Below are positions 16,105 to 51,168 of a stretch of DNA of 64,000 bases, in pieces. The notes beneath the pieces are model-generated. The model saw nothing but the letters and a program-made list of their open reading frames with translations. It did no database searches and was not told the DNA's origin. Each line of letters starts with the position of its first letter. The stretch's first letter is position 1. The position numbers and the translations under genes are program-made. Source of the DNA: Collinsella sp. (lineage in GTDB: Bacteria; Actinomycetota; Coriobacteriia; Coriobacteriales; Coriobacteriaceae); the NCBI GenBank assembly GCA_031292915.1, contig JAUMSH010000086.1:16450-80449 (forward strand), in the 5' to 3' direction.

Positions 16105-16188
16105 GGAAATCTCCTCGATTGCAGGATGGATGTCTAACCGCATCAGTATAAAGCAACAAAGCGACCTCCGCACAAAGGGCACCGACCC

Positions 16189-16327: not shown

Positions 16328-16436
16328 AGGTGCGGAAAGGGTGTGAATGTTGGATTTACGCGATATGATGTGCCCTTGCATATAGAGCTCGGCGGAATGG
16401 TAACGGTCGCCGGGACACGTTTTTGAAAGGACAATC

Positions 16437-32693: not shown

Positions 32694-33238
32694 CTTGTAG
32701 GTCCTTCGCCTTTCATCCACACGGGAATCCCGCATACCACTTCGACTGCGCGGTCGGCCAGCGCCGCCACGCCCGCGTTCACGCGCGCGAGCGCGCGCCT
32801 CCATGCCTCGGTCCCCTCATCGTAGCGCATCCCATCGGCGAACACGTCGACGGTGACCACCACCGTATACGCAGCGGCCTGAGCGAGCCGTTCGATGCCT
32901 CCGAGCACCTCGCGCGCCGCAGCGTCGGGGTCACGTGGGGACAAGTCGCCTTCCGCGAAGAGCTCGTTCGCAACCAGGTTGCCCACGTCCTCCAAAAGAA
33001 GTGTGCAGCCGCGCGGAAGCCCGGGCACTGCGGCGCCCACGTCACGCGTGCGCTCGAGGGTGGAAAACCCCTTGCCCTCGCGCAGCGCCCGATGGCGCGC
33101 GATGCGGCGGGCGCCCTCTTCCCCGAAGGGCTCCATCGTTGCCAGGTACACGCGGGGGCCGTCGTGTCCGAGGCACAGGGACTCGGCGTAGGCGCTCTTG
33201 CCGCTCGCGGCGGCGCCGATGACAAGCGTCACCGTCAT
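32690..33238 (-). CDS. cobU: adenosylcobinamide kinase / adenosylcobinamide-phosphate guanylyltransferase
   Basis: MTVTLVIGAAASGKSAYAE and a full-length ~182-aa CobU-like layout. The ATG at 33238 overlaps the cobT TGA. Confidence 0.88.
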   Translation of the reverse strand: MTVTLVIGAAASGKSAYAESLCLGHDGPRVYLATMEPFGEEGARRIARHRALREGKGFSTLERTRDVGAAVPGLPRGCTLLLEDVGNLVANELFAEGDLSPRDPDAAAREVLGGIERLAQAAAYTVVVTVDVFADGMRYDEGTEAWRRALARVNAGVAALADRAVEVVCGIPVWMKGEGPTR

Positions 33239-34377: not shown

Positions 34378-35752
34378 GCCGTCTCCTCTCTGCGAACGAC
34401 GCTGCGGCAGACGCGAACGCGCGCGCAACGTCGGGGTTCGCAGGATAGTACACATGCGGGAAGCCCGCAACCAGGGACGGGGTGGTCGTCATGCACGGCC
34501 AGCCCTTGTCGCGCCGGGGCTTTTGCGCCCAGAAGTCGCCGCCCGGGCAGGTGGACTGCCAGTAGTGGAACTCGTGCGCGCGGATGCGTGTGCCGCGCGG
34601 CCCGTAGAGCCCGTCGCGTTGGGAAGTGAGCTCCACGTACCCGAAATGGGACAGCCTTCCCCCGTTCTCGCTTGCGCCCTCAAGGGCGCCCGCAACAGGC
34701 CAGCGCCGCCCCTCGCTATCGGCGATTTCGCGCTGCAGGTACAGAAACCCACCGCATTCGGCGACCGTCGGCATGCCGGATTCCACCGCATGCCGCACCG
34801 CCTCGCGCATCGGCGCGTTCTCGGAGAGCTGCCGCGCATGGAGCTCCGGGTAGCCGCCTCCCAGATAGAGGGCGCTTGTCCCCCGGGGCAACTCGCTATC
34901 ACACAGGGGGCTGAAAAAGGCCAACTCGCAACCCAGGTCCTCGAGCGCGCGCAGGTTCTCCTCGTAGTAGAACGAGAACGCCTCGTCACGCGCGACGGCG
35001 ACGATGGGCCGCGCTCCCGCGATCGGCTCCAACCGGTAAGGATCCTCGCGGATATCGGGTGCCGTCGCCGCTATTTCGAGCAAGCGGTCGACATCGACGC
35101 TCTTTTCCACCAGCACGGCCATCTTGTCGATGCGCGCGGAGAGCTGCTCGACCTCGTCGGCGGTCACAAGCCCCAGATGCCGGCTTTCGAGCGAGAACGC
35201 CTCGTCGGCGGGGATATTCCCCAAAACCGCGACGCCCGTGTGCTTCTCGATCGCAGGCTTCGCGTAGGCGCAGGCAGCGGCGCTCGTCTTGTTGAGCACG
35301 ACGCCGCGCACGTTGGCACAAGGCAGGAACTCGGCGATGCCGCTGATTACGGCGGCGAGCGATAAAGACGCCCCGCGCCCGTTCACCACTAAAACGACCG
35401 GCGTTTCCGTGTCGCGCGCAACCTGATAGCTGCTCGCGTCGGCCACGCCGGGCGCCATGCCGTCGTAGAAGCCCATGACCCCCTCGAGCACCGCGACATC
35501 CGCGCCCGCAGCGCCGCGTGCGAGCAGGGCGCGCAGCGTCGGGGCGTCGGTGAAGAAGCCGTCTAAGTTGCCCGAGCGCGCACCCACGACGCGGCGATGA
35601 AAGAGCGGGTCAATGTAGTCGGGGCCGCATTTGAAGGCCGCGCATGCAAGGCCGCAGCGCGCGAGCGTGCGCAGGAGCGCGCACGTTACGACCGTCTTGC
35701 CGCTCCCGCTCGAGGGCGCAGCGACCATGAAGCGCGGGATGGTCGTGCTCAC
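34370..35752 (-). CDS. cbiA: cobyrinate a,c-diamide synthase
   Basis: VAAPSSGSGKTVVTCALL and the GATase motif AECGGFLYL. The GTG at 35752 overlaps the cbiET TGA. Confidence 0.9.
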   Translation of the reverse strand: MSTTIPRFMVAAPSSGSGKTVVTCALLRTLARCGLACAAFKCGPDYIDPLFHRRVVGARSGNLDGFFTDAPTLRALLARGAAGADVAVLEGVMGFYDGMAPGVADASSYQVARDTETPVVLVVNGRGASLSLAAVISGIAEFLPCANVRGVVLNKTSAAACAYAKPAIEKHTGVAVLGNIPADEAFSLESRHLGLVTADEVEQLSARIDKMAVLVEKSVDVDRLLEIAATAPDIREDPYRLEPIAGARPIVAVARDEAFSFYYEENLRALEDLGCELAFFSPLCDSELPRGTSALYLGGGYPELHARQLSENAPMREAVRHAVESGMPTVAECGGFLYLQREIADSEGRRWPVAGALEGASENGGRLSHFGYVELTSQRDGLYGPRGTRIRAHEFHYWQSTCPGGDFWAQKPRRDKGWPCMTTTPSLVAGFPHVYYPANPDVARAFASAAASFAERRRHG

Positions 35753-37029
35753 CGGGCGCCGCCTTCCCCACCTGCACCACGCGCGCTGACGAGGAACACG
35801 GGGTTTTGCGCCTTCATAAGATGGTGCGAGCCTACAGCCTCGGCGCGGGCGGCCGACACCTGGCACGCCTCGAACCCCTTAAAGCGCGAACCCGAGAGGA
35901 GCGCGCACGCCTCGGTGAGCGTCTCAACGGTGACGCATGGCACGCACAGGCGAACCTGCGAGTTCTTCTCGAGCGCCGCCTCCACGATAGAGGGAAGCTC
36001 GCCCGCGCTCCCGCCGACGAACACGGCGTCGGGGACGGGCAGTTTCGCGAGCGCTTCGGGGGCGACACCGGGGACCGCATGCACGTTGCCGCACCCGAAT
36101 GCATCCGCGTTCTCTCGGATGAGCCGCACGCCGGCCGCGTTGCGCTCGACCGCCCATACCGACCCCGCTCGCGCGACGAGCGCCGCCTCGATCGATACGC
36201 TCCCCGTGCCGGCGCCGATGTCCCACACGGTGTCGGTCGCGGTAAGGCGCAGCTTCGCGAGCGCGACGGCGCGCACCTCCTGCTTGGTCATGGGAACGTC
36301 GCCGCGGATGAAGAGCTCGTCGGGAATGCCCGAGGAAGCGTACGGCCAGCGGGAGCTCGCGGCGCGAGATGCGTTAGAGCCCACAGGCGACCCGGCGCCG
36401 CCTGCGAACTCGATAAGCATCACGTTCAAGTCATCGAACGTCTGACCTGCTATTTCACTTGCGGTCGCACAGGTGATGCGCTCGTCGGGGTACGACAGGC
36501 GCTCGGCCACCGTCACGCGCGCGTCCCCGAAGCCCGCCTGCACAAGCTCGCCCGAAAGCCGCGAGGGGTCTTCCCCGCCCGACGTGGCGAGGAAAAGCTC
36601 ACCTGCGCGCTCGGCCTCGGCCACGATGTCGCACGCCACGCCGTGAGCGCTCGCGAAGCGCCAATTCTGCCATGGACGCGCGAGGCGCGCGGCGAGATAC
36701 GATGCTGAGCTTATGCCGGGAATGACGCGCACGGCCACCTGCGCGTCGCCGGAGAGCGCCTCCACCAGGCGGCGCGCGCCGCTGAACAGCCCAACATCGC
36801 CCGTCATCACGACCACGGCGCGCTGCCACGACGCCGCATCGGTGAGCGCGGCGACGATGTCCGCCGTCTTCACGAGCTCGCATCTCACCACGTCGGGCGG
36901 CACGTCGATGCCGACAAGCGCGCGATGAGCGCCGATGACCACGTCGGCGATGTCGATCGCGTCGAGCGCCGCGCGCGAGAGCAAGTCGGGGTTTCCGGGC
37001 CCCGCCCCGATGATCGTTACCTTTCGCAT
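35749..37029 (-). CDS. cbiET: bifunctional cobalt-precorrin-7 (C5)-methyltransferase / cobalt-precorrin-6B (C15)-methyltransferase, decarboxylating (CbiE-CbiT fusion)
   Basis: N-terminal tetrapyrrole methylase motif IIGAGPGNPDLLS. C-terminal class I methyltransferase motif VWDIGAGTGSVSIEAA. The ATG at 37029 overlaps the cbiH end by 13 nt. Confidence 0.88.
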   Translation of the reverse strand: MRKVTIIGAGPGNPDLLSRAALDAIDIADVVIGAHRALVGIDVPPDVVRCELVKTADIVAALTDAASWQRAVVVMTGDVGLFSGARRLVEALSGDAQVAVRVIPGISSASYLAARLARPWQNWRFASAHGVACDIVAEAERAGELFLATSGGEDPSRLSGELVQAGFGDARVTVAERLSYPDERITCATASEIAGQTFDDLNVMLIEFAGGAGSPVGSNASRAASSRWPYASSGIPDELFIRGDVPMTKQEVRAVALAKLRLTATDTVWDIGAGTGSVSIEAALVARAGSVWAVERNAAGVRLIRENADAFGCGNVHAVPGVAPEALAKLPVPDAVFVGGSAGELPSIVEAALEKNSQVRLCVPCVTVETLTEACALLSGSRFKGFEACQVSAARAEAVGSHHLMKAQNPVFLVSARGAGGEGGAR

Positions 37030-37760
37030 GGAATCTCCCGATACCCGCGCGGCGTAACCATACGGCCGCCCACGAGCTTCGTGTCCGCGTTGCCGACGAA
37101 CACGGTGGTGAACATGTCGGCGTCGATCTCTTCCAGCTCGGAGAGCCTGCACATGCCCGACTGCTGCCCCTCGCGCCCGATGTTGCGTACCCAGCCGCAG
37201 AGCGTGTCGGGGGCCTTCCATTCGAGCATAATCTTCGCCGCGCGTGAGAGCCTGTCGGCGCGCTTTCTGCTGTGCGGGTTGTACAAACAGATGCAGAAGT
37301 CGGCGCTCGCCACGGCGGCGAGCCTGCGCTCGATGACCTCCCACGGTGTGAGCAGGTCGGAGAGCGACACGACCGCGAAGTCGTGGGCAAGCGGGGCGCC
37401 GAGCACCGCCGACCCGCTCTGAGCCGCGGTGGCCCCGGCGATAACTTCCACGTCTACATCGGGGTAGTCCTCCGCAAGCTCCAGCACGGGGCTCGCCATG
37501 CCGTACACGCCCGCGTCACCGCTGCACACGAGCGCCACGGCTTCTCCGCTCTGCGCGCGCGAAAGCGCCAGGCGGCACCGTTCGACCTCGTGCATCATCG
37601 GCGTCGCGAGATGCGCCGCGTCGGGCACGGCGGCGAGCGCGAGCTCCACGTATTTCGTGTACCCCACAACGATGTCGGCCGCCTCGAGCGCGCGCCGGGC
37701 CGCAATCGTCATGCCATCGGGGCCGCCCGGGCCGATCCCCACCACGAAGAGCTTTCCCAT
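37017..37760 (-). CDS. cbiH: cobalt-factor III / precorrin-3B C17-methyltransferase
   Basis: GKLFVVGIGPGGPDGMT and a tetrapyrrole methylase fold. The ATG at 37760 overlaps the cbiG TGA. Confidence 0.9.
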   Translation of the reverse strand: MGKLFVVGIGPGGPDGMTIAARRALEAADIVVGYTKYVELALAAVPDAAHLATPMMHEVERCRLALSRAQSGEAVALVCSGDAGVYGMASPVLELAEDYPDVDVEVIAGATAAQSGSAVLGAPLAHDFAVVSLSDLLTPWEVIERRLAAVASADFCICLYNPHSRKRADRLSRAAKIMLEWKAPDTLCGWVRNIGREGQQSGMCRLSELEEIDADMFTTVFVGNADTKLVGGRMVTPRGYREIPCER

Positions 37761-38893
37761 CACCGCTCCTTAAACGAAAGTTCGATAGTTACCTTGGAAA
37801 ACGCGACGGTCACGCCGCCGTGAGCGAGCTTCGGGAAGATAAGTTTGCCCCCGTCCGCGAGTGCCGCGCGCTCGCACACGTTGTCGACCCCAACCGTCGC
37901 GCGCACGAAATCAGATGGCGAAACGCTGCCTTCGACCTGCGACAACTCCTCTGCGGAATACGTCGCAAGCGGGATATTGCGCGCGCGGCAGAAGGCGAGC
38001 AGACCCTCCTCGTGCGCCTTCACGTCGATCGTCGCCGCCTCGCGCACGGCCAAAGGCGAGATACCCGCCTGCCCGCACGCGAGAAGAAACGCCTCCTCGA
38101 TCGCTTCGGCGCACGCACCGCGACGGCACCCTATGCCCGCAACGATGCAGGGCACGACAAGGCGAAGCGGCTCGGGCGCAGGCGCCTGCGCCCGCACGCC
38201 GGCCGGCTTCCCCGTCTCACCGACGGGCACGACCTCGCCTGTTGTCTCCGCCGCGCGAACGGACGCACCTGCATTCGCGCCAGCGAACGGCGACACGACG
38301 ATATCGGCCAGAGCGCGGTCGGACGCAATGTCAACCCCCTCAGGCAGCTGTCCCGAAATCGGCATGTCGGAATAGAGCGTCACGCGCCCGCCCGAAAGCA
38401 GCCGCGCCGACACTCGCTTGATGGCCTCGGGATTCGAAACGGCGAGCCCCGCACAGCGCGCCCACGTATCCACCGCCCACACGCCGCGGACGTCGGTCGC
38501 CGTGGTGATGACGGGGATGGCCCCTGCCGCGCGTGCCACAGTTTGCGCAAGGTCGTTCGCACCGCCCAAATGCCCCGACAAAAGCGGGACGGCAAAGCGC
38601 CCCGCCTCGTCGATCACCACAACCGCAGAATCGGTTGCCTTCGAGGCGACATGCGGCGCGATCGCCCGCACGGCGATGCCCGCCGCGCCCACGAACAGAA
38701 GCGCGTCCGACGCTTCCCACGCGAGCGCCGTCCATGTGCGCAGGTCGGCCTTCCCCTCGCCGAACCCGCGCGAAACGGAAACGTCCCAGCCAGGGTCATC
38801 TTCACCTGTCTGCGCGCAATCGGAAAGCGCGCGTGCGGTGCGCTGCGCCAACGCATACCCCCTCTCAGTGAACGCTATGCAGGAAATCCTCAT
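37760..38893 (-). CDS. cbiG: cobalt-precorrin-5A hydrolase
   Basis: CbiG-type N and C domains (MRISCIAFTERG.., ..ISPLAVREAATIDVKAHEEGLL). The start abuts the stop of the upstream cbiL remnant (TAGATG). Confidence 0.85.
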   Translation of the reverse strand: MRISCIAFTERGYALAQRTARALSDCAQTGEDDPGWDVSVSRGFGEGKADLRTWTALAWEASDALLFVGAAGIAVRAIAPHVASKATDSAVVVIDEAGRFAVPLLSGHLGGANDLAQTVARAAGAIPVITTATDVRGVWAVDTWARCAGLAVSNPEAIKRVSARLLSGGRVTLYSDMPISGQLPEGVDIASDRALADIVVSPFAGANAGASVRAAETTGEVVPVGETGKPAGVRAQAPAPEPLRLVVPCIVAGIGCRRGACAEAIEEAFLLACGQAGISPLAVREAATIDVKAHEEGLLAFCRARNIPLATYSAEELSQVEGSVSPSDFVRATVGVDNVCERAALADGGKLIFPKLAHGGVTVAFSKVTIELSFKER

Positions 38894-39127
38894 CTAGCGC
38901 ACCACCATCGTTGAGAAGTAGCTGCCCCGATCGGGCACATCGTCGAGCAAGCGGTACATGCGCTCGCCCGGAAGCCCACAGTCCTCTACGAGCTCGGCAC
39001 CGTCGAAGGTGCCCTCCTCGCGAAGGATGCGCTTCGTGTCCGCAAGCGAGTGGCGCGCCTTCATAGCCACCTTCGTCCCTGGCCAGCCGATTGCGCGGCC
39101 CACCCCATACAGCGCGCCTTTACTCAT
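38894..39127 (-). pseudogene. cbiL: cbiL (cobalt-factor II C20-methyltransferase) in-frame internal-deletion remnant, 77 codons
   Basis: It retains the CbiL N-terminus MSKGALYGVG and the CbiL C-terminus (KVAMKARHSLADTKRILREEG..ELVEDCGLPGERMYRLLDDVPDRGSYFSTMVV). About 150 central residues of the methylase fold are missing. The ATG at 39127 overlaps the cbiD end by 8 nt. Confidence 0.6.
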
Positions 39128-40304
39128 ACGTCGCCCCCAATTCCCCGATAACTGCATCGGCGCCCGACGTGCGGAAAAGCTCGCGGCGCTCGGCGTCGAA
39201 CACGACCGCGGCGATGTCGCATGCGCCCGCCGCGCGGCGGCGCAACCTGTCCTCGATTGCCGCAGCGAGCGAGGCGCGCGCAGCGTCCCCCACGCCGGCG
39301 GCCTCGATTACCTCGAGCGCCACCGTGGTCGTGACGGACGTCATGATCTCGCGCACGGTCTTCGCACCCGCGCCGGCCATGGCCGCGTGGGCGGCCAGAA
39401 TCTCCGCGCGGCAGTCGGCGGTACGCGAATGGGTGTCCATGATGCCGCCCGCGACCTTCACCAACTTGCCGATGTGTCCCACAAGAAGGACATTGGTGAA
39501 TCCCTCGCGAACGCAGCAATCAATCGCATCGCCCACAAAGTTGGAGATGAAGACCACCGGCGCACCGTTTAGGTGGAAATGCCCCGAGATGAACTGCCCG
39601 CCGTAGTTGCCGGGCGTGAGCACGACTCCGCGCCGCCCCATAGCCGCATGCTGCCGGATCTCGAGCTCGATGCTGTCGCGCAAGGCAGCGAGACTGCGAG
39701 GCTCGACGATGCCCGTCGTGCCCAGGATGGAGATGCCGCCCTCTATCCCCAGGTGCGGGTTGAAGGTCTTTTCGGCAAGGGAAACGCCCTCGGGTACCGA
39801 AATCGTCACAGCAATATTTCCAGAAAAGCCGTGCGCGGCGCACACCTCGCGCACCGCCGAAGTGATCATCGCGCGCGGCGTCGCGTTGATGGCGGCCGCC
39901 CCCACCGGCTGCTCGAGCCCGGGCAACGTCACGCGCCCCACGCCCACGCCGCCATCGACGGAAACTTCCGATTCGTGCGCGGGCACGCCCTTGCTGCCCG
40001 CAGCACCCGTGCCCGACCCCGAATGTTCCACGCGCGCGTACACGAGCACGCCGTCGGTCACATCGGCATCGTCGCCTGCGTCCTTACGCACGGCGCACTG
40101 GGCGCACCCCTCGCCGATGCATGCGTCGACCACGTCCGTCTCGACGGGCAGCCCGCCGGGGGTGACGATCGACACGAGGCCGACGGGCTTTCGTGACAAG
40201 AGCATCTCGCAGGCTGCCTTCGCCGCGAGCGCGGCGCAGCTCCCCGTGGTGTAGCCGCAGCGCAGGCGGGTCGTCCCGGTATATATGTAGTGCTCGAAGG
40301 CCAC
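39120..40304 (-). CDS. cbiD: cobalt-precorrin-5B (C1)-methyltransferase
   Basis: LRCGYTTGSCAALAAKAA, and GGISILGTTGIVEP. The GTG at 40304 lies 1 nt after the cbiF stop. Confidence 0.88.
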   Translation of the reverse strand: MAFEHYIYTGTTRLRCGYTTGSCAALAAKAACEMLLSRKPVGLVSIVTPGGLPVETDVVDACIGEGCAQCAVRKDAGDDADVTDGVLVYARVEHSGSGTGAAGSKGVPAHESEVSVDGGVGVGRVTLPGLEQPVGAAAINATPRAMITSAVREVCAAHGFSGNIAVTISVPEGVSLAEKTFNPHLGIEGGISILGTTGIVEPRSLAALRDSIELEIRQHAAMGRRGVVLTPGNYGGQFISGHFHLNGAPVVFISNFVGDAIDCCVREGFTNVLLVGHIGKLVKVAGGIMDTHSRTADCRAEILAAHAAMAGAGAKTVREIMTSVTTTVALEVIEAAGVGDAARASLAAAIEDRLRRRAAGACDIAAVVFDAERRELFRTSGADAVIGELGATYE

Positions 40305-40305
40305 G

Positions 40306-41097
40306 CTAGCTGCTCGCCTTCCGATACCCCGTGGCAAACGAAGGGTCGTAAAGCTTGCTGCGCTCGTACGACTCCGCTTGCGCGCCGTCGTGCGCAAGCC
40401 CGCCGCGAGCTCCGAGCACGCGGCCCACCACCACGAGCGCCGTGCGGTCGATGCCCTCTCGCGCGCCCGCATCGGCGAGCGTGCCCACTGTGCATCGCAC
40501 CACGCGCTCCTCAGGCCAGGTCGCCTTGTACACGAGCGCCGCCGGCTCGTCGGAGCTGCGGCCCGCGGCCAAAAGCTCGGCGGAAAGCTCGGCGAGCATA
40601 CCCGAGCTCAGGAAGATGACCATAGTCGAACCACTTTCCGCCATGGTGCGCATGCCCTCGCCCGCGGGCATGGGGGTACGTCCGGAAAGCCGCGTGATCA
40701 CGACCGACTGGCTGATTCCCGGCAGCGTGTATTCCTGGCGAAGCGCCGCCGCGGCACCGCAAAAGCTCGACACGCCGGGCACCACCTCGTAGTCCACGCC
40801 GCGCGCGTCGAGTGCGTCCATCTGCTCCTGGATGGCGCCGTACAGGGACGGGTCGCCTGTGTGCAGGCGCACCACTTCCTCGCCCCGCGCATCCGCCGCG
40901 CACATCACGTCGAGCACTTCCTCCAAGGTCATGTGCGCGCTGTCGTAGACGATGCAGGATTCCTTGCACTCAGCGAGCAGCTCAGGGTTCACAAGGCTTC
41001 CCGCCCAAACGACCACGTCGGCTGCGCGCAGAAGGCGCGCCCCGCGCAGCGTGATAAGGTCGGCGGCGCCCGAGCCTGCGCCAACGATATGAATCAT
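40306..41097 (-). CDS. cbiF: cobalt-precorrin-4 C11-methyltransferase
   Basis: MIHIVGAGSGAADLITLRG and VVRLHTGDPSLYGAI. GGGAAGGGAAGG precedes the ATG at 41097. This is the first gene of the operon. Confidence 0.9.
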   Translation of the reverse strand: MIHIVGAGSGAADLITLRGARLLRAADVVVWAGSLVNPELLAECKESCIVYDSAHMTLEEVLDVMCAADARGEEVVRLHTGDPSLYGAIQEQMDALDARGVDYEVVPGVSSFCGAAAALRQEYTLPGISQSVVITRLSGRTPMPAGEGMRTMAESGSTMVIFLSSGMLAELSAELLAAGRSSDEPAALVYKATWPEERVVRCTVGTLADAGAREGIDRTALVVVGRVLGARGGLAHDGAQAESYERSKLYDPSFATGYRKASS

Positions 41098-41228: not shown

Positions 41229-41257
41229 TTGACACGTTCACAAGTGCCCACTATCAT
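41229..41257 (+). promoter_or_regulatory. sigma70-type promoter for the riboswitch-controlled cbiK/transport operon
   Basis: TTGACA (41229-41234), exactly 17 nt, then TATCAT (41252-41257). Confidence 0.65.
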
Positions 41258-41297
41258 AGTAAAAGATTCGGCAACGAGCATATGACAATCGGATAAA

Positions 41298-41440
41298 AGG
41301 AAATGACCGGCGCGGCGCCCGCACAGCCCGCGCTGGCTTGCGGAGGGAACCAGGTGGGAATCCTGGGCAAGGGACATTACTGTATAGGACGCGCGGGCGA
41401 ACCGCCTCGCGCCCCAAGCCAGACTGCTTCGCCTTTTCCT
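41298..41440 (+). promoter_or_regulatory. cobalamin-riboswitch-like aptamer (followed by terminator-like platform to ~41497)
   Basis: The closing helix is AGGAAA/TTTCCT. GGAGGGAACCAGGTGGGAATCCTGGGC (from 41342) and ACTGTA (41379-41384) match the conserved core blocks. AAGCCAGACTGCTTCGCC (41416-41433) sits at the B12-box position but is atypically short. A hairpin (41441-41455) and the run CTTTTCTTT (41488-41496) lie downstream. Confidence 0.6.
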
Positions 41441-41555
41441 CACGGCATCGCCGTGGCGTTAGCTCCTTGTGAGCCCCGAGGGGTGCGCTTTTCTTTCGCT
41501 TGTGCCGACAAGCAACTGTCGCCGGGGGACCGGCAAACCGAGGAAAGGAAAAACC

Positions 41556-42482
41556 ATGTCCGACCAGATGTCACGCCGCGGCTTCATGGGCGCCGCAGCA
41601 ACCGGAGCCGTCGCGCTCGCCGGAGTCGCACTCGCGGGCTGCTCCAACACCTCCGCGAGTTCCGAGAAATCGAGCGAAAAGGAGAAGGCCGTGAAGCCGG
41701 TCATCCTCGTCACGAGCTTCGGCACGAGCTACAACGACTCGCGCCACATCACCATCGGCGCCATCGAAGACGCTATCCGCGAGAAGTACTGGCAGGACTA
41801 CGACATCCGCCGCGCCTTCACCGCGCAGATCATCATCGATAAGCTGAAGAAGCGCGACGGCATCACGATCGACAACATGACCGAGGCGCTCGACCGCTGC
41901 GTGGAAGACGGCGTGAAGGAAATCGTCGTGCAGCCGACGCATCTCATGGGTGGCCTGGAATACACCGACGTGAAAGACGAGCTCGACAAGTACGCCGACA
42001 AGTTCGACAAAATCTCGCTCGGCGACCCGCTGCTCACCTCCGACGACGACTACAAGAAGGTGGCCGCAGCCATTAAGGAGAACATGGCGTCCTTCGACGA
42101 CGGCAAGACGGCGCTGTGCCTCATGGGCCACGGCACCGAAGCCGATTCCAACGCCGACTATGCCAAGATGCAGGAAGTGTTTAAGAACGAGGGCTTGACG
42201 CAGTTCTTCGTCGGCACCGTCGAGGCTGAACCGACCTGCGAGGATGTTATCGCCGCCGCGAGCGCCGCAGGCTACAAGAAGGCCGTGCTCGCGCCGTTCA
42301 TGGTGGTCGCGGGCGACCACGCGAATAACGACATGGCAGACGAGACCGACCCCGACAGCTGGGCTGCGAAGTTCGTGGCCGCCGGCTTCGAAGTGACGTG
42401 CCTGCTCCAGGGTCTGGGACAGAACGTCGCGGTCGACGACATCTACGTCTCGCACGTGGACGACGCCATCGCCAAGCTGTAA
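41556..42482 (+). CDS. cbiK: CbiK-family (sirohydrochlorin cobaltochelatase fold) protein with twin-arginine/lipoprotein signal peptide
   Basis: MSDQMSRRGFMGAAATGAVALAGVALAGC has an RR motif and a lipobox Cys. The mature part has ILVTSFGTSY, VVQPTHLMGG and CLMGHGT (both metal-ligand His contexts). GAGGAAAGGA precedes the ATG. Confidence 0.85.
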   Translation: MSDQMSRRGFMGAAATGAVALAGVALAGCSNTSASSEKSSEKEKAVKPVILVTSFGTSYNDSRHITIGAIEDAIREKYWQDYDIRRAFTAQIIIDKLKKRDGITIDNMTEALDRCVEDGVKEIVVQPTHLMGGLEYTDVKDELDKYADKFDKISLGDPLLTSDDDYKKVAAAIKENMASFDDGKTALCLMGHGTEADSNADYAKMQEVFKNEGLTQFFVGTVEAEPTCEDVIAAASAAGYKKAVLAPFMVVAGDHANNDMADETDPDSWAAKFVAAGFEVTCLLQGLGQNVAVDDIYVSHVDDAIAKL

Positions 42483-42627
42483 ACTCGCCGCGCACGGGGG
42501 CGCCGGTCGCGTCCCCGTGCAACGGGCATGCGCCTTCCCCGACTGACGGCGCATGCCCGTTGCATTCGCATCCCGCCCGCCCACCGCACGGCGCGGGCGG
42601 TCGAAGCGATTGAAAGGAACCCCCTCC

Positions 42628-43161
42628 ATGTTGAAGAAAACCCTCGCCTTCGCCCTGTCAGCGGCGCTTTTCGCGTTCTCGCTCGCCGGCTGCGGCGGAA
42701 ATTCAATCGACAGCGCAAAGGCAAGCGATGCCGATTCCCAGGAAAAGACCGAACAGGCGGCCGATGCGCCCGAGGGCGCAAGCGCTGCCCCCATCACCGC
42801 CGACAAGGTGGCCGACGGCACCTATCCGATCACCGTAGATTCCAGCTCGAACATGTTCAGGATTGTGGACGCCCAGCTCATCGTGGAAAACGGCTCCATG
42901 CACTGCGTGATGACGCTTTCCGGCACGGGCTACGGCAAGCTCTTCATGGGCACGGGCGACGAGGCTGCCGCCGCGAGCGAGGCCGACTTCATCCCCTATG
43001 TGGAAAACGCGGAAGGCAAGTACACCTACGACGTGCCCGTTGAAGCGCTCGACGAGGACACCGCCTGCGCCGCGTGGAGTATTAGAAAAGAGCGGTGGTA
43101 CGACCGCACGCTCGTGTTCGAATCCGCCGGCGTCGATCTGCGCGCCGACGCACTGAAGTAA
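42628..43161 (+). CDS. lipoprotein of unknown function with a beta-rich domain paralogous to the N-domain of the next gene
   Basis: MLKKTLAFALSAALFAFSLAGC is a lipobox. The domain is GTYPITVDSSSNMFRIVDAQLIVENGSMHCVMTLSGTGYGKLFMG. GAAAGGAAC precedes the ATG at 42628. Confidence 0.75.
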   Translation: MLKKTLAFALSAALFAFSLAGCGGNSIDSAKASDADSQEKTEQAADAPEGASAAPITADKVADGTYPITVDSSSNMFRIVDAQLIVENGSMHCVMTLSGTGYGKLFMGTGDEAAAASEADFIPYVENAEGKYTYDVPVEALDEDTACAAWSIRKERWYDRTLVFESAGVDLRADALK

Positions 43162-43165
43162 CGCC

Positions 43166-44737
43166 ATGCGGTCGATTCTTCCCAAGGGGGAAAGCAGAAA
43201 GCGCCGCAGCATCGCGGTGCGCGTGATCGCCTGCATTCTCGTCGCCCTGCTCGCGCTTCCCTTCGCGGGGTGCAGTGCGAGCCCGAACGCGACCGGTGGC
43301 ACGGCGGGCTCTCAGGAATACACTGTGAGCGTCTCGCTTGCCGGCGGGTCAGGGCGCGCAAGCATCGCCTCACCCACCACAATTGTGAAGGATGGCGACA
43401 CCTACACCGCGACCATCACCTGGTCGAGTTCGAACTACGACAAGATGACCGTCGACGGCGTAGACTACGCGCCCGTAAACGACGGCGGCAACTCCACGTT
43501 CGAGATACCCGTCACGCTCGACGAGGACATCGCCGTGTCGGCCGAGACCGTCGCCATGTCGACGCCGCACACCATCGACTACACGCTCTACTTCGACTCA
43601 TCCACCATGAAGAAGAAAACGGGCGACGATGCAAGCGGCGACTCCCCTGCGGGAACGGCTTCAAGCGCCGCGGCCGACTTCCACAACGCAGATTTGGGCT
43701 GCGGCTGGGAGCCGACGGGGACGCTTCAGCTAGAATACGCCAAGCACTTCACTGTCGACGAGTTCGAAGGCGGCTTGCGGCTTATCTGCGTTTCGAACGG
43801 GGAGCGCTTCCTCGTGGCGCCGCAGGATGCGAAGGTACCTGATGGGTTGAGCTCCGACATCGCGGTCATAAGGCGCCCCGCCGACAAGGTGTACCTTGTG
43901 TCGTCGGCGACGATGTGCCTGGTCGACGCACTCGATGCGAACGACAACATCCTCATGTCGGGCACGAAGGCCGACGATTGCTCGGTCGCGGGCTTCAAAA
44001 GCGCGCTCGAAAGTGGGGCGATCGCCTACGGCGGCAAGTACAGCGCGCCCGACTACGAGCGAATATCGGCCTCGGGCTGCACGCTCGCCATCGAGAACAC
44101 CATGATCAACCACACGCCCGATGTGAAGGAAAAGCTGCAGAAGCTCGGGCTCGTCGTGCTCACCGAACAGTCGTCGAGCGAGACCGAAGCACTCGGGCGC
44201 CTCGAGTGGATTAAGCTTTTCGGCGTCCTGTTCGACAAGGAAGACGAGGCCGCGCACCTGTTCAACGAGCAGAAGGCCCGCGTCGAGCAAACGTCGGGGC
44301 TCGCGTCGTCAGGTAAAACCGTAGCGTATTTCTACATTAACTCGAACGGGGCCGCCGTCACGCGGCGGGCGGGCGACTACGTGGCGCAGATGATCGAGCT
44401 TGCAGGCGGCAGCTACGCACTCGATGATGCGCAGACGGCGTCGACGTCAGGTTCGTCAGTAACGCTCGAAATGGAGCGCTTCTACGCAACGGCGAAGGAT
44501 GCCGACATCATCGTCTACAACGGCACCATCGACGAATCGGTTGCCACCTTGAAAGACTTCGTAGGCAAAAACGCGCTATTGTCGCAGTTCAAAGCTGTAA
44601 AGAACGGCAACGTCTGGGTCACAAGCGCCGACATGTACCAGCAGATGACTTCTACCGCCGACATTATCGACGAGCTGCACGGGGCGTTCACCGGCGATGA
44701 CGCGAGCGACTTCCATTATCTGAGGAAGCTCGGCTAG
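43166..44737 (+). CDS. ABC substrate-binding lipoprotein (BtuF/FecB-type, cluster A) with extra N-terminal beta-rich domain
   Basis: Lipobox LALPFAGC. The N-domain is YTVSVSLAGGSGRASIASPTTIVKDGDTYTATITWSSSNYDKMTVDG. The Peripla_BP_2-like body has KVYLVSSATMCLVDAL.., APDYERI, and WIKLFGVLFDKE. Confidence 0.85.
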   Translation: MRSILPKGESRKRRSIAVRVIACILVALLALPFAGCSASPNATGGTAGSQEYTVSVSLAGGSGRASIASPTTIVKDGDTYTATITWSSSNYDKMTVDGVDYAPVNDGGNSTFEIPVTLDEDIAVSAETVAMSTPHTIDYTLYFDSSTMKKKTGDDASGDSPAGTASSAAADFHNADLGCGWEPTGTLQLEYAKHFTVDEFEGGLRLICVSNGERFLVAPQDAKVPDGLSSDIAVIRRPADKVYLVSSATMCLVDALDANDNILMSGTKADDCSVAGFKSALESGAIAYGGKYSAPDYERISASGCTLAIENTMINHTPDVKEKLQKLGLVVLTEQSSSETEALGRLEWIKLFGVLFDKEDEAAHLFNEQKARVEQTSGLASSGKTVAYFYINSNGAAVTRRAGDYVAQMIELAGGSYALDDAQTASTSGSSVTLEMERFYATAKDADIIVYNGTIDESVATLKDFVGKNALLSQFKAVKNGNVWVTSADMYQQMTSTADIIDELHGAFTGDDASDFHYLRKLG

Positions 44738-44741
44738 CGTC

Positions 44742-45782
44742 ATGAGAAGCCGGCTTTCCATGACATACGAAGAATCGGGGCGCGCCGCGCGGTGTCGCGT
44801 CGTGACGGCGCTGCTCGCTGTTGTCCTCATCGTGCTCGTCGGGGCCAACCTGTGCATCGGGAGCGTGCTCGTGCCCGCAGACCACATCCCCGGCATCCTT
44901 TCAGGCGGCGCGGCCAATTCCATGGAAAGCCAAGTCATCTGGGAGATTCGCCTGCCGCGCGTGCTTTCAGCCGTGCTTCTCGGCGGGGCACTTTCGCTCT
45001 CCGGATTCCTGCTGCAGACTTTTTTCAACAACCCCATCGCCGACCCGTTCATCTTGGGCGTCTCCTCGGGCGCAAAGTTCGTCGTCGCGCTTACGATGAT
45101 CGTGCTTCTGGGCACGAACCAGGCCATGTCCTCGCCGGCCATGGTGGCCGCAGCGTTTCTGGGATCGCTTATCACCATCGGCTTCGTGCTCCTCATCGCA
45201 CGGCGCATAAGTTCCATGGCCATGCTCATCGTGGCGGGCGTCATGGTGGGATACATCTGCTCGGCGGCGACGAACTTTCTCATCGCCTTCGCCGACGACC
45301 AGTCCATCGTGAACCTGCACAACTGGTCTTTGGGTAGCTTCTCGGGTTCGAGCTGGGACGACATCGCGGTCATCGCGGTCGTGGTGATCACCGTGAGCGC
45401 ATGCGTATTCGCGATATCGAAGCCCCTTTCCGCCTTCCAGCTGGGAGAAGCCTACGCGAAAAGCGTCGGCGTGAACGTCGCACGCTTCCGCGTGGTGCTC
45501 GTCCTTCTAGCGAGCATGCTCTCCGCCTGCGTGACCGCGTTCGCTGGTCCGGTGTCGTTCGTAGGCATCGCGGTTCCGCATCTCGTGAAGTCGGCGCTGA
45601 AGTCGTCGAAGCCCATCCGCGTGATTCCTGCGTGCTTCTTGGGAGGCGCCATCTTCTGCGCGGGCTGCGATTTGATCGCGCGCACGCTGTTCTCCCCCGT
45701 CGAGCTTTCCATCAGCGCCGTCACCGCCATCTTCGGCGCGCCGGTGGTTATCGCGCTCATGCTGAAGAAGCGGGTGAGGTAG
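44742..45782 (+). CDS. FecCD/BtuC-family ABC permease
   Basis: About ten hydrophobic segments, with IRLPRVLSAVLLGGALSLSG and VSFVGIAVPH motifs typical of FecCD. Confidence 0.92.
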   Translation: MRSRLSMTYEESGRAARCRVVTALLAVVLIVLVGANLCIGSVLVPADHIPGILSGGAANSMESQVIWEIRLPRVLSAVLLGGALSLSGFLLQTFFNNPIADPFILGVSSGAKFVVALTMIVLLGTNQAMSSPAMVAAAFLGSLITIGFVLLIARRISSMAMLIVAGVMVGYICSAATNFLIAFADDQSIVNLHNWSLGSFSGSSWDDIAVIAVVVITVSACVFAISKPLSAFQLGEAYAKSVGVNVARFRVVLVLLASMLSACVTAFAGPVSFVGIAVPHLVKSALKSSKPIRVIPACFLGGAIFCAGCDLIARTLFSPVELSISAVTAIFGAPVVIALMLKKRVR

Positions 45783-46997
45783 ATGGAGAAATTCGTGCCG
45801 CGGCCCAAAACGCTCAGAGGGGAGTCGAACCTCGAAACCCCGGTCGAAACGCAGGCTGACGGAGCGCCGCTTTTCCGCATAAGCGACCTGTCGGCGGGCT
45901 ACGACAAGAAGGTCGTAGTCGAAGGCGTCGATCTGGAGGTTCGCGCGGGCGACGTCGTGGCGCTCATCGGGCCGAACGGCTCGGGCAAGTCGACCATCTT
46001 GAAAACCATCACACGCCATCTGGCACCGCTTGCCGGCGCGGTCGAGCTCGACGGGCGAGAGATTTCCCGATGGAAGACGGCGGAGTTCGCAAGGAACCTT
46101 GCCGTTATGCTGACAGATCGCCCCCGGACCGAGCTCCTCACCTGCCGCGATATCGTAGAGGCGGGAAGGCATCCCTACACCGGGCGAATGGGCACACTCA
46201 CGCCCGATGACCATAATCGGGTCGACGAGGCCATGAAAACCGCACATGTGGAAGGGCTCGCCGAGCGCGACTTCATGCAGATAAGCGACGGGCAACGCCA
46301 GCGCGTCATGCTCGCACGCGCCATCGCGCAGGATCCGCGTGTGCTCGTGCTCGATGAGCCCACGTCGTATCTCGATATCCGCTACCAGATCGACCTGCTG
46401 CGAATACTTCGCCACCTTGCGAAATCGCGGAATGTTGCTGTCATCATGTCCATCCACGAACTCGAGCTCGCGCAGAAAAGCGCCGACAAGGTGATTTGCG
46501 TGAAGGACGGCCGGGTCTTCCGCGCCGGCGCACCCGAGGACATATTCACGCGCGAGACGATTGGCGAGCTCTACGGCCTTCAACATGGCACCTTCAACGA
46601 GCGCTTCGGCAGCGTGGAAATTGGGCGCCCACACGGCGATGCACACACATTCGTCATCGCCGGCGCAGGTACGGGGTCGGCTGTGTTTCGCCAGCTCATC
46701 CGGCAGGGCAAGGCGTTCTACGCGGGCGTTCTGCACGAAGGGGACATCGACTGCGAGCTCGCGCGCGACCTGGCGACGGAATGCGTGGCCGAGCGCGCCT
46801 TCGAGCCGATCGGGGATAAAACCATAGCCCGCGCCAAAGAGCTCCTCGTCCACTGCGCGAGCCTTATCGTGTGCCCCGCCGCCTTCGGCACCATAAACGC
46901 CCGCAACGCAGAGCTCGTCGAGTTTGCACGATCGCATGGTATCGAGGTCATGCAAGCGTGCGAAGGCGCATCGGAGGATTCCAATGGATACGCCTAG
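45783..46997 (+). CDS. ABC ATP-binding protein (FecE/BtuD-type) with ~135-aa C-terminal extension
   Basis: GPNGSGKST, ISDGQRQRVMLARA and VLVLDEPTSYLD, followed by the extra domain HTFVIAGAGTGSAVFRQLIRQG... Confidence 0.9.
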   Translation: MEKFVPRPKTLRGESNLETPVETQADGAPLFRISDLSAGYDKKVVVEGVDLEVRAGDVVALIGPNGSGKSTILKTITRHLAPLAGAVELDGREISRWKTAEFARNLAVMLTDRPRTELLTCRDIVEAGRHPYTGRMGTLTPDDHNRVDEAMKTAHVEGLAERDFMQISDGQRQRVMLARAIAQDPRVLVLDEPTSYLDIRYQIDLLRILRHLAKSRNVAVIMSIHELELAQKSADKVICVKDGRVFRAGAPEDIFTRETIGELYGLQHGTFNERFGSVEIGRPHGDAHTFVIAGAGTGSAVFRQLIRQGKAFYAGVLHEGDIDCELARDLATECVAERAFEPIGDKTIARAKELLVHCASLIVCPAAFGTINARNAELVEFARSHGIEVMQACEGASEDSNGYA

Positions 46998-47126: not shown

Positions 47127-47184
47127 TCGTTTAATCCACAAGTGGGTATTATCACACACAAGGCACACGTGAAAGGATATGCCC

Positions 47185-48618
47185 ATGTCGCTTACACAGT
47201 CAGCAGAGCGTGCAGCGCTCAACAAGCTCATCGATTATCTCGACGACAACCCGCAAGAAAACATCGACAAAATCATGGACCTCGTGAACAAGCTGGTCCC
47301 CAATCGCGTATTTCCTGTACAGCGAGAGGCATTCACCAATGTCATCAAGAGCCGCGGCAATTGGTATGACCTGATCATGCGTGTGTTCAGCCTTAATCCC
47401 CAGATGCGAACCAAGCTGCTTAAGACCCTCATTGTCGACGCCAACCTGCTTGCTTGGCCAGAGCAGGAAAAGAACCGCGAAAAGTACCAGTGCAACGTTC
47501 CGTGGGCCATCCTGCTCGATCCCACGAGCGCCTGCAACCTGCATTGCACGGGCTGCTGGGCCGCTGAGTACGGCTACAAGCAGAATCTCTCGTTCGAAGA
47601 CATCGACTCTATCGTTACGCAGGGCAAAGAGCTCGGTACGCATATCTACATCTATACCGGCGGCGAGCCGCTCGTCCGCAAGCAGGACCTAATCAGAATT
47701 TGCGAAAAACATCAGGACTGCGCGTTTCTCTGCTTTACCAACTCCACGCTGATCGACGAGGCCTTCTGCGACGACATGATTCGCGTAGGTAATTTTGTCC
47801 CCGCCATCAGCGCCGAGGGCAATGAGCACACAACCGACGCCCGTCGCGGCGAAGGTACCTACGCAAAGATCGAGCACGCCATGAAACTCCTGCGCGAGCG
47901 CGACTTACCGTTTGGTATCTCCACCTGTTGGACAAGCGCCAATGCCGATACGGTTGCTACCGAGGAGAACATGGACTGGATGATCGGCGAGGGAGCACTC
48001 TTCTGCTGGTACTTCCACTTTATGCCGGTTGGCCGCAACGCAACCCCCGAGCTCATGCCCACGCCCGAGCAGCGCGAGCACATGTATCACTTTATCCGCA
48101 AAATGCGCGAGAAGAAGCCGCTGTTTACGCTCGACTTTCAAAACGACGGCGAGTTTGTAGGCGGGTGTATCGCCGGAGGTCGCCGCTACCTGCACATCAA
48201 CGCCGCCGGAGACGTGGAGCCGTGCGTGTTCATCCACTACTCAAACGCCAACATCCACGATGTGAGCTTACTCGACGCGCTGCGCTCTCCCCTCTTTATG
48301 AAGTACTACGAAAACATGCCGTTCAACGACAACTACCTCAAACCATGCCCCATGCTCGAGAATCCAGACGTGCTGCCCAAAATGGTTGCCGAGAGTGGCG
48401 CAATGAGCACCGATCTTATCGAGAAGGAGTCACTCGAGCAGCTGCGCGAAAAGACCCAGGCTGCCGCCGAGGCATGGTCACCTGTCGCCGACCGCATCTG
48501 GAACGACTCCGACGAGCCGCTATACGCCAAGCGTCACGAGGATAAGTCACAGGGTATGGCCGATAGCGACATGCACAAGTTCGAAAAGCAGGGCCGCACG
48601 CTCAAAAACGGCGATTAA
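47185..48618 (+). CDS. radical SAM protein of unknown function
   Basis: TSACNLHCTGCWAAEY carries the CX3CX2C motif, with YTGGEPL. The C-terminal Cys-containing region is GGCIAGGRRYLHINAAGDVEPCVF..KPCPMLENP. GAAAGGA lies 7 nt before the ATG at 47185; 47179 is an alternative start. Confidence 0.85.
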   Translation: MSLTQSAERAALNKLIDYLDDNPQENIDKIMDLVNKLVPNRVFPVQREAFTNVIKSRGNWYDLIMRVFSLNPQMRTKLLKTLIVDANLLAWPEQEKNREKYQCNVPWAILLDPTSACNLHCTGCWAAEYGYKQNLSFEDIDSIVTQGKELGTHIYIYTGGEPLVRKQDLIRICEKHQDCAFLCFTNSTLIDEAFCDDMIRVGNFVPAISAEGNEHTTDARRGEGTYAKIEHAMKLLRERDLPFGISTCWTSANADTVATEENMDWMIGEGALFCWYFHFMPVGRNATPELMPTPEQREHMYHFIRKMREKKPLFTLDFQNDGEFVGGCIAGGRRYLHINAAGDVEPCVFIHYSNANIHDVSLLDALRSPLFMKYYENMPFNDNYLKPCPMLENPDVLPKMVAESGAMSTDLIEKESLEQLREKTQAAAEAWSPVADRIWNDSDEPLYAKRHEDKSQGMADSDMHKFEKQGRTLKNGD

Positions 48619-50992: not shown

Positions 50993-51069
50993 TGGTAGCC
51001 CGTACCAGATTCGAACTGGTGATCTCCGCCTTGAGAGGGCGGCGTCCTAAACCGCTAGACGAACGGGCC
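50993..51069 (-). tRNA. tRNA-Glu (anticodon CUC), CCA encoded
   Basis: The minus strand reads GGCCCGT TC GTCT AGCGGTTTA GGAC G CCGCC CTCTCAA GGCGG AGATC ACCAG TTCGAAT CTGGT ACGGGCT A CCA. This folds as a full cloverleaf with anticodon CTC. Confidence 0.92.
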
Positions 51070-51091: not shown

Positions 51092-51168
51092 TGGTAGCCC
51101 GTACCAGATTCGAACTGGTGATCTCCGCCTTGAGAGGGCGGCGTCCTAAACCGCTAGACGAACGGGCC
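51092..51168 (-). tRNA. tRNA-Glu (anticodon CUC), identical second copy
   Basis: Its 77 nt are identical to 50993-51069, with a 22-nt spacer between the copies. Confidence 0.92.

Follow-up and report, generated by a model that had tools for sequence, protein, structure and literature searches.

The closest described relatives of the system analysed here are IhtABCDE of Porphyromonas gingivalis and the CbiK(P)-btuCDF-cbiL operon of Desulfovibrio (PMC545781), of which it would be the monoderm counterpart. It is encoded by a five-gene operon (41556-46997, + strand) in a stretch of 64,000 nucleotides from Collinsella sp. (GenBank assembly GCA_031292915.1, contig JAUMSH010000086.1, positions 16,450 to 80,449 of the forward strand), hereafter the window, whose coordinates are used except where another locus is named. 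The operon comprises genes for a predicted exported CbiK-family chelatase, a lipoprotein with a NEAT-like domain, a substrate-binding lipoprotein carrying a second such domain, and the permease and ATPase of a BtuCD-type ATP-binding cassette (ABC) importer. In P. gingivalis, a CbiK-family surface lipoprotein, IhtB (FetB, PG0669/PGN_0705), likewise shares an operon with a FecCD permease, its ATPase and a binding protein of class III, and the cobalamin riboswitch upstream of the iht operon responds by experiment to adenosylcobalamin (AdoCbl; PMC3422912, PMC3764172). FetB is the best CbiK homologue of its host and can insert cobalt and manganese into porphyrins in vitro; in vivo, the formation of manganese protoporphyrin IX depends on its gene (PMC13065792). 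According to work cited in PMC6461909, P. gingivalis also resembles the Collinsella host in lacking precorrin-2 synthesis while keeping the downstream pathway. Iht differs in belonging to a diderm, in having a TonB-dependent receptor (IhtA) that is absent here, and in lacking NEAT-like proteins, which take the outer position in the monoderm host.

CbiK(P) of Desulfovibrio vulgaris (Protein Data Bank (PDB) entry 2xvx) is exported with its catalytic residues intact, and in Desulfovibrio one B12 element governs both cbiK-cbiL and btuCDF (PMC545781). Unlike the Collinsella protein, CbiK(P) is periplasmic and soluble, binds haem via His96 and has no NEAT-like partners, and its host makes its own precursors and has a second, cytoplasmic CbiK (Lobo et al. 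2008, cited in PMC13065792). Both Iht and CbiK(P) have been treated mainly as haem or iron systems (PMC12094164). The first-pass annotation of the window was right that exported CbiK homologues exist, but it overstated the novelty of the arrangement, to which the Iht riboswitch and the Desulfovibrio B12 element stand closer than it allowed. The kind of system is itself known; what is new here is a family of NEAT-like proteins and, for an old question, an answer that can be put to the test.

In its working the module resembles the Isd relay (IsdX1, IsdA/B/C/H, Hbp2, Shp; IsdEF), in which NEAT-fold surface domains, single or tandem, stand before a class III lipoprotein and a FecCD importer and tetrapyrroles are transferred from hand to hand; in its logic it resembles the Bacteroides BtuG/H/J relay; it is a member of neither. 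Compared with Isd, sequence similarity is at or below the Pfam threshold, only the first Tyr of the YxxxY motif is retained, the anchor is a lipobox or a C-terminal helix rather than sortase, regulation is by a cobalamin riboswitch rather than by iron, haem oxygenase is absent, and a NEAT-like domain is fused to the binding protein. The Bacteroides lipoproteins BtuG, BtuH, BtuJ and BtuK are riboswitch-controlled, capture cobamides at the surface and pass them to a transporter (PMC13616437), but they have beta-propeller or DUF4465 jelly-roll folds, reside on the outer membrane and do not involve a chelatase; no Pfam match of the window proteins to these folds was found. Classical BtuFCD is likewise governed by a cobalamin riboswitch and built of a class III binding protein, FecCD permease and ATPase, whereas here the binding protein has a 200-aa (amino acid) N-terminal extension and the ATPase a C-terminal domain otherwise seen in an archaeal corrinoid ATPase model.

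Results

The five open reading frames (ORFs) are tightly packed on one strand, and all five cistrons and the leader preceding them were confirmed, with domain assignments, at the positions first annotated. We conclude, with a probability of roughly 85%, that the operon is a cobalamin-riboswitch-repressed surface capture and import line for tetrapyrroles of the B12 pathway. The initial description of a riboswitch-controlled operon with an exported CbiK and further lipoproteins ahead of a BtuCD-type importer is supported. The window CbiK protein is 99-100% identical to that of loci in Collinsella aerofaciens ATCC 25986 and many other Collinsella genomes, and the host is a monoderm gut actinobacterium, C. 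aerofaciens or a very close relative. In the public assembly collection the protein occurs in 8,726 blocks, which indicates that the host organism is very abundant.

The first gene (41556-42482, +) encodes a CbiK-family chelatase lipoprotein of 308 aa (PF06180, 265 bits against a cut-off of 26.2), in which a Tat-type SRRGFM motif and a LAGC lipobox (Cys29; N-terminus MSDQMSRRGFMGAAATGAVALAGVALAGC) are followed by a Ser-rich linker and the CbiK domain at residues 47-306. The TIGR01409 Tat model scored 16.2 bits against a cut-off of 16.7. Without exception, 12 orthologues (65-88% identity) retain R7, R8, the hydrophobic core and Cys29 of the lipobox, while the Ser/Thr linker after Cys29 varies freely in length and sequence, a pattern indicating that the twin-arginine/lipobox signal proposed in the first-pass annotation is a real lipoprotein signal. 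Given this conserved signal, the protein is predicted to be exported, not cytoplasmic like the CbiK of the classical anaerobic B12 pathway. Among PDB sequences, it is nearer to Salmonella CbiK (1qgo, 154 bits) than to FetB (9b86, 132 bits) or CbiK(P) (2xvx, 117 bits); the CbiK equivalog model NF047852 gave 225 bits, under its cut-off of 400. The metal-site residues H192 (MGHGT), E223 and H255 (AGDHA) align to H145, E175 and H207 of Salmonella CbiK and are invariant in the 12 orthologues. Of the two histidine contexts originally named as metal ligands, MGHGT is therefore correct (H192), whereas the histidine of QPTHL is not a ligand, the others being E223 and H255. Thr replaces the haem ligand His96 of CbiK(P).

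Selection was assessed from the ratio of non-synonymous to synonymous substitution rates (dN/dS) across 88 loci (L001-L088) of the C. aerofaciens complex; 80 Collinsella loci from a genome-contig scan with a CbiK alignment, all 98-100% identical, were used for the population test only. This revealed that cbiK is intact in all 88 loci and has the lowest dN/dS of the region (0.10), against 0.12 for the FecCD permease, 0.22 for the NEAT-like lipoprotein, 0.27 for the ATPase and 0.28 for the binding protein. Because its catalytic site is both intact and strongly constrained, we suggest that CbiK has an enzymatic role, beyond that of a binder put to new use. The observation that it is the sole chelatase homologue holds for CbiK-like sequences, of which tblastn found no second within the 64 kb, and for the annotated ORFs between 25.3 and 52 kb, among which no other chelatase was found.

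Two CbiK relatives, P0012 and P0095, contain two tandem CbiK domains with an acidic linker between them; matches of these tandem proteins to PF25290, caspase and other models were discarded as sub-threshold noise. The CbiK lipoproteins of low-GC lineages (L095, 6177-7409; L097, 6704-7882) carry an extra helical segment of about 100 aa (...AKEAWDALTDAQKALVE...) between lipobox and CbiK domain, which is absent in Collinsella.

The second gene (42628-43161, +) encodes a 177-aa lipoprotein with a LAGC lipobox, a low-complexity linker and a beta-sandwich at about residues 60-165. A Pfam match was not found, and a hit to PplA in NCBIfam (22 bits against 325) was rejected because it spans only the signal peptide and linker. 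The 214 word-indexed relatives of the protein align with invariant SSS-MF, TLSG-GY and WYDR motifs. An AlphaFold2 model reached a predicted local distance difference test (pLDDT) score of 94-98 over residues 60-165, and when it was compared with the PDB using Foldseek, ranks 1-35 were all NEAT domains or Shp, the best being IsdX1 (E 4.7e-5, template modelling (TM) score 0.64), with further matches to Hbp2, IsdA, IsdC, IsdH, IsdB, Hal and Shp. NEAT domains are the classic tetrapyrrole hand-off domains of Gram-positive surfaces, with the lip and last strand as their ligand-contacting elements. The most conserved parts of the 177-aa protein are the SSS-MF lip (strands 2-3) and the WYDR last strand; Y158 is invariant and the second Tyr is replaced by Leu.

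The third gene (43166-44737, +) encodes a 523-aa substrate-binding lipoprotein (lipobox FAGC) in which a second NEAT-like domain (about 46-150) is followed by a linker, a small beta sub-domain and a class III core (Peripla_BP_2, 245-488, 112 bits). When profiles were compared with hhalign, residues 46-153 proved to be a homologue of the 177-aa lipoprotein (probability 97.7%, E 1.8e-12), and within this domain Y139, M131 and H135 are invariant. The extra N-domain of about 100 aa noted at first is indeed a discrete domain of that size, but the whole N-terminal extension runs to about 200 aa. The binding protein was also modelled with AlphaFold2, and in fold searches its core showed about the same degree of resemblance to CeuE, HtsA, BtuF and haem binding proteins; the whole protein likewise matched siderophore, haem and B12 binders alike, which does not discriminate its ligand. 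Against NCBIfam, a BtuF model match was not found and similarity to IsdE was weak.

An exhaustive profile search, with clustering at 50% identity, placed 1,372 clusters in the NEAT-like family (890 at E <= 1e-10). Many members are giant, with up to 10 tandem copies of the domain, and many are fused ahead of a Peripla_BP_2 domain. The Pfam NEAT model PF05031 matched three of ten members scanned, each below its cut-off of 32.8 bits (31.0, 31.7 and 23.2 bits), and a full-text literature search did not find a link between NEAT-like domains and B12 uptake. By these comparisons, the N-domain of the binding protein is a homologue of the 177-aa lipoprotein, and both are predicted NEAT-like members of an undescribed family. 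The idea that cargo passes through the second lipoprotein and this N-domain gains support from their mutual homology and predicted fold, and the operon would have the architecture of an Isd-type relay joined to an exported chelatase, with a NEAT-like protein, a NEAT-like domain on the binding protein, and a permease and ATPase. The regulatory context argues for a B12-pathway ligand of the NEAT-like domains, not haem.

The last two genes encode the importer. The FecCD/BtuC-type permease (44760-45782, +; 340 aa, or 346 aa from an alternative start at 44742) matches PF01032 with 273 bits, and its best NCBIfam model is BtuC (NF003001, 211 bits, under the cut-off of 334). The 404-aa ATPase (45783-46997, +) consists of an ABC_tran domain and an MJ0874-like domain (PF27219, about residues 275-404), which accounts for the C-terminal add-on seen earlier; of the NCBIfam models, that of the archaeal corrinoid ATPase PRK09536 (NF007082) fits it best, with 251 bits, under the cut-off of 537. 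The BtuFCD equivalog cut-offs were reached by none of the permease, ATPase and binding protein, and a PDB sequence search with the ATPase C-domain did not find a relative. The ATPase C-terminus (46600-46997) differs in length between strains (404-438 aa; L001-L008), and among the loci compared, ten ATPase genes are frameshifted and 27 could be aligned only in part. A radical SAM/SPASM gene farther downstream (47179-48618, +) was excluded as an operon member, since several strains either lack it or have an insertion sequence before it; in L001, an insertion sequence (HTH_Tnp_1 + rve; 15484-16646) lies between it and the ATPase gene.

At the gathering score (31.5 bits), Rfam found no cobalamin riboswitch (RF00174, a member of clan CL00101) in the whole window. 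A permissive search gave 16 bits (E 0.087) for 41302-41412, in an alignment that ends short of the true B12 box; on this score alone the claim of a riboswitch would fail, and single-sequence folding of the leader was uninformative (z = -0.61). The matter was decided only through comparison with other loci. Six leaders were aligned, those of the window, C. tanakaei (L089), L091, L092, L093 and L094, a sample that by itself provides moderate evidence, and all share the core GGGAAyCAGGUGnnAAUCCUGrGC, the B12 box AAGCCAGrCUGC and a downstream hairpin with the loop UGARCCC. In the window, the core GGGAACCAGGTGGGAATCCTGGGC (41345-41368) and B12 box AAGCCAGACTGC (41416-41427) are invariant or nearly so in the six lineages. 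Pairing was tested on a structure written from the Rfam architecture, with slid 3' partners and 500 shuffles as controls. This revealed that 88% of cells pair, against 40-63% with slid partners, and that 12 pairs show double (compensatory) changes, against at most 5 in slid controls; none of the 500 shuffles reached the observed values. RNAalifold independently recovered P1, P3, P4 and the downstream hairpin, the P13 helix covaries (double changes in four of seven pairs), and a CUG/CAG to CCG/CGG change in L093, read by eye, supports P6. The homologous elements of other loci score higher against RF00174 (L089, 27.6 bits; L093, 28.9; L097, 29.3; L098, 33; L095, 60.7), and across 86 loci of the C. 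aerofaciens complex the aptamer diverges by 0.0054 per site, compared with 0.022-0.024 in adjacent spacer.

Judged by these comparisons, the leader is a real, divergent cobalamin riboswitch, as the compensatory changes and the threshold-passing riboswitches of homologous operons bear out, and it would bind cobalamin and thereby repress the operon. The aptamer (41295-41441, +) comprises P1, P3, P4, P5 and P6 with the core GGGAACCAGGUGGGAAUCCUGGGC, a short P6 extension and the B12 box AAGCCAGACUGC (41416-41427). It is followed by a putative expression platform (41442-41497, +) made up of a hairpin (41441-41456), a P13-like hairpin (41462-41484) and then GCGCUUUUCUUU; the hairpin and U-run at 41462-41497 resemble a terminator. 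The loop of the P13-like hairpin, UGAGCCC, is complementary to L5 (GGGACA), and since none of the six sequences shows a change in the GGG of L5 or in the CCC of L13, an L5-L13 kissing loop can only be inferred. The short P6 extension and the pairing of a G-rich L5 with a C-rich distal loop, where the consensus L5 is C-rich, probably account for the low Rfam score. Upstream, a putative sigma-70-type promoter (TTGACA-17 nt-TATCAT; 41229-41257, +) would drive the cbiK operon; it matches 11 of 12 consensus positions, with 0.1 such sites expected in shuffled sequence, and diverges within the species by 0.012 per site against 0.022-0.024 in flanking spacer. The distal leader (41498-41555, +), at 0.003 per site within the species, is even more conserved than the aptamer and may be a second regulatory element, for example one that sequesters the ribosome-binding site or acts as an antiterminator.

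In loci of the Collinsella type, CbiK and both NEAT-like proteins, lipoprotein and binding protein, are retained, and the permease and ATPase usually accompany them. Each such locus with enough flanking sequence adjoins cbi genes; the arrangement is divergent in L089, L091 and L092, whereas in L090 the module follows CbiJ in tandem. In more distant loci the order varies. Behind a riboswitch, L095 has CbiK (lipoprotein), NEAT-like protein, binding protein, FecCD and ATPase; L097 has NEAT-like protein, CbiK (lipoprotein), binding protein, FecCD, ATPase and a CbiL-like methylase, the last matching the Desulfovibrio arrangement; and L098 has a cytoplasmic CbiK, NEAT-like binding protein, FecCD, an ATPase::CbiD fusion and ring genes. 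In L098 the CbiK (276 aa) has no signal peptide, the free NEAT-like protein is absent, and a 685-aa ORF (10596-12653) fuses the importer ATPase, lacking the MJ0874-like domain, to CbiD.

A metagenome scan seeded with distant NEAT-like lipoproteins returned 80 loci (39-64% identity). A CbiK gene lies directly upstream on the same strand in 45 of the 59 loci with at least 1.1 kb of upstream sequence, and a binding protein gene lies downstream in 52 of 58 with enough sequence, 51 of these 52 binding proteins having a NEAT-like N-domain. In the exceptions, importer genes are upstream or ring genes downstream, as in L107 (binding protein-FecCD-ATPase-CbiK(lipoprotein)-NEAT-CbiD-CbiL-CbiF) and L157 (CbiK-NEAT-CbiD-CbiF). 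All 45 complete CbiK genes adjoining NEAT-like genes encode a signal peptide, and 44 a lipobox. Co-occurrence with cobalamin riboswitches, which the first-pass annotation suggested checking, was found in 35 of 40 related loci scanned, which have one upstream on the same strand at the Rfam gathering score (35-121 bits); this count includes a 14-locus class without an adjacent CbiK. Control by haem or iron is thus very unlikely, and the NEAT-like family is, by its predicted leaders, B12-regulated.

Divergent from the operon lies a cbi/cob cluster of about 16 kb (25318-41097, - strand) with the order CbiF, CbiD, cbiL relic, CbiG, CbiH, CbiET, CbiA, CobT, CobU, CobS, CobC, CbiB, CobD, CbiP, CobA, CbiC, CbiJ. 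Neither a chelatase, a cobalt transporter (cbiMNQO or other) nor a recognisable riboswitch on its own strand was found in this cluster. In L099, each of the divergent operons has a cobalamin riboswitch of its own, the two standing back to back (108 and 60 bits). The cbiL relic (38894-39127, -; 77 aa), between cbiD and cbiG, is an in-frame deletion that joins the N-terminal GVG motif to the last 64 or so residues and matches residues 168-231 of C. tanakaei CbiL (232 aa; E 2e-17); no other CbiL was found within the window. The gene is kept in C. tanakaei (L089) and L091 (232-233 aa) and wholly lost in L092. Across the C. aerofaciens complex, dN/dS is 0.13 for CbiET, 0.15 for CbiF, 0.18 for CbiH, 0.22 for CbiD, 0.25 for CbiA and 0.42 for CbiG. 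CbiG, under relaxed selection, acts on the C20 unit methylated by CbiL, and its relaxation and the loss of cbiL may be connected. With this exception the ring genes are under purifying selection (0.13-0.25), so that the ring pathway is more than a decaying remnant; the gene under the strongest constraint is that of the chelatase. Two identical tRNA genes (50996-51069 and 51095-51168, -; 62.3 bits each) lie 26 nt apart farther along the window.

Collinsella is without genes for the ring precursors as far as precorrin-2. Neither hemA/L/B/C/D nor precorrin-2 synthase is present in C. aerofaciens ATCC 25986, C. tanakaei or Collinsella sp. 4_8_47FAA, which have been classed as 'tetrapyrrole precursor salvagers' with a predicted requirement for 'precorrin-2' (Shelton et al., PMC6461909, Supplementary Table 10). 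A complete corrin-ring pathway without the means to make its precursor is found in about 180 species, including Collinsella (PMC6461909). In culture, C. aerofaciens requires B12 despite its biosynthetic genes (Rodionov et al., PMC6593275).

Discussion

The evidence ties the system to B12, not to haem or iron, and is compatible with finished corrinoids and with early ring precursors without separating the two. We tentatively favour, at somewhat less than even odds, an early ring precursor as the cargo, into which cobalt would be inserted at the surface. When intracellular cobamide is low, the leader would permit transcription of the operon. The Tat-exported, lipid-anchored CbiK, as a true chelatase at the surface, would take a scavenged metal-free intermediate at the level of sirohydrochlorin or precorrin-2 and insert Co2+. 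The cobalt-tetrapyrrole would then pass to the free NEAT-like lipoprotein, to the NEAT-like N-domain of the binding lipoprotein and on to its binding cleft, and the BtuCD-like ABC importer would carry it into the cell, where it would feed the adjacent, chelatase-less cbi enzymes and then those of the nucleotide loop. Ready-made corrinoids would probably also enter through the line formed by the NEAT-like proteins, binding protein and importer, so that precursor salvage and corrinoid capture may coexist. We favour a precursor because the chelatase is catalytically intact, strongly constrained and the only one tied to ring operons in several lineages, because hosts without a precursor supply keep their ring genes under selection, because the cbi cluster lacks a cobalt transporter, and because FetB, from a host with the same gap, is a homologous surface protein with cobalt chelatase activity whose operon has an AdoCbl-responsive riboswitch.

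Several observations weigh against a precursor as the cargo. In the gut, sirohydrochlorin is likely to be far scarcer than corrinoids, which are abundant there. An organism that requires B12 must have a corrinoid importer, for which this operon is the sole candidate seen here, and its permease and ATPase score best on Btu models. In C. aerofaciens cbiL is a relic and in L092 it is gone, yet the operon is perfectly conserved there; CbiL is the enzyme that would use cobalt-sirohydrochlorin. Desulfovibrio, with a related operon, makes its own precursors. Furthermore, 14 of the 59 metagenome loci (L155, L156, L160, L164-L167, L171-L177) combine a riboswitch, large multi-NEAT-like proteins, a binding protein and a permease without an adjacent CbiK, none being present within 3.5 kb upstream. 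This class suggests that the relay can work without a neighbouring chelatase gene, as would suit ready-made corrinoids.

Most of these points speak for the reading of the first-pass annotation, in which the operon takes up only B12 or cobinamide: the NEAT-like domains and CbiK would be passive high-affinity corrinoid binders, functional analogues of BtuG/BtuH/BtuJ that hand complete or incomplete corrinoids to the BtuF-like protein and BtuCD, and the chelatase site would do no more than hold a cobalt ring. Riboswitch control, the B12 requirement of C. aerofaciens (PMC6593275) and the nucleotide-loop and late amidation genes alongside agree with it as well. It leaves unexplained, however, why the partner in 45 of 59 loci, and across three phyla, should be a chelatase that has an invariant His/Glu/His site and stands nearest to a biosynthetic CbiK, why ring-synthesis operons with no other chelatase contain the module, and why ring genes are under selection where there is no precursor supply. 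In addition, the cleft of CbiK, as known from the Salmonella structure, suits a ring with eight carboxylates and not amidated corrinoids. We regard uptake of corrinoids alone as a serious alternative, only a little less likely than precursor salvage. What stands of the original proposal of a corrinoid or tetrapyrrole cargo is the tie to the B12 pathway; finished corrinoids specifically are not singled out over ring precursors.

It is unlikely that the operon instead acquires cobalt in place of CbiMNQO, with surface CbiK loading Co2+, possibly into any tetrapyrrole carrier, for delivery by the importer. The absence of a cobalt transporter from the cbi cluster would be accounted for, and a transporter adjoins cbiK here as cbiMNQO does in classical operons such as the Salmonella cbi operon. 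No known cobalt transporter occurs in delta-proteobacteria that have CbiK (PMC545781), and cobalt importers are typically B12-regulated (PMC7689651). However, free cobalt is useless to a precorrin-2 auxotroph unless the ring is also obtained, the NEAT-like domains indicate a macrocycle and not an ion, and there are loci without CbiK.

Haem or iron uptake of the Isd or Iht type, in which NEAT-like receptors would take haem and CbiK would remove or exchange its metal ahead of the importer, has very little probability. It would fit the predicted NEAT fold, the weak IsdE similarity of the binding protein, and the description of IhtB and CbiK(P) as haem binders (PMC12094164; Lobo et al. 2008, cited in PMC13065792). 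Against it, both the window locus and 35 of 40 related loci have a cobalamin riboswitch and not iron control, the locus has no haem-degrading or haem-using gene and its genomic partners are cbi genes, the haem ligand of CbiK(P) is missing from the window CbiK, and no dechelatase activity of FetB was observed (PMC13065792).

Equally improbable is a mis-annotated start, by which a cytoplasmic CbiK would begin at an internal GTG (V47; 41694), preceded at 6 nt by AAGGAG and giving a classical-looking N-terminus (MKPVILVTSFGTS), and the lipoprotein part would be leader sequence: we rejected this GTG as the main start since its codon is not conserved, being Ala, Thr, Pro or Arg in orthologues that keep the RR, hydrophobic core and lipobox Cys, all 45 related genes encode signal peptides, and the upstream ATG has its own ribosome-binding site (GGAAAGGA), although a minor cytoplasmic isoform is possible in the window species.

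A 2026 review described extracellular cobamide capture by Gram-positive bacteria as 'entirely uncharacterized' (PMC13616437). The operon of a highly abundant human gut actinobacterium offers a concrete, testable apparatus for such capture, and is a strong candidate for the route by which these bacteria scavenge B12 or ring precursors. The roughly 1,370 NEAT-like clusters without a Pfam model, lying in the B12 regulon and not the iron regulon, widen the presumed cargo of NEAT domains. We know of no uptake route for tetrapyrrole precursor salvagers, and an exported chelatase, relay and importer that are B12-regulated and embedded in ring operons would be the first specific candidate. It is quite possible, if less likely than not, that a committed step of anaerobic B12 synthesis, cobalt insertion, takes place outside the cell in precorrin-2-less Collinsella, many Clostridia and P. 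gingivalis, with scavenged rings at the sirohydrochlorin level metalated by surface CbiK and passed on through a NEAT relay and importer. If so, the missing uptake route of precursor salvagers would have been found and the corrin pathway of P. gingivalis, which Roper is said to have called an 'enigma' in 2000, would be explained. These results suggest that P. gingivalis Iht and Desulfovibrio CbiK(P) are worth re-examining as B12-pathway systems.

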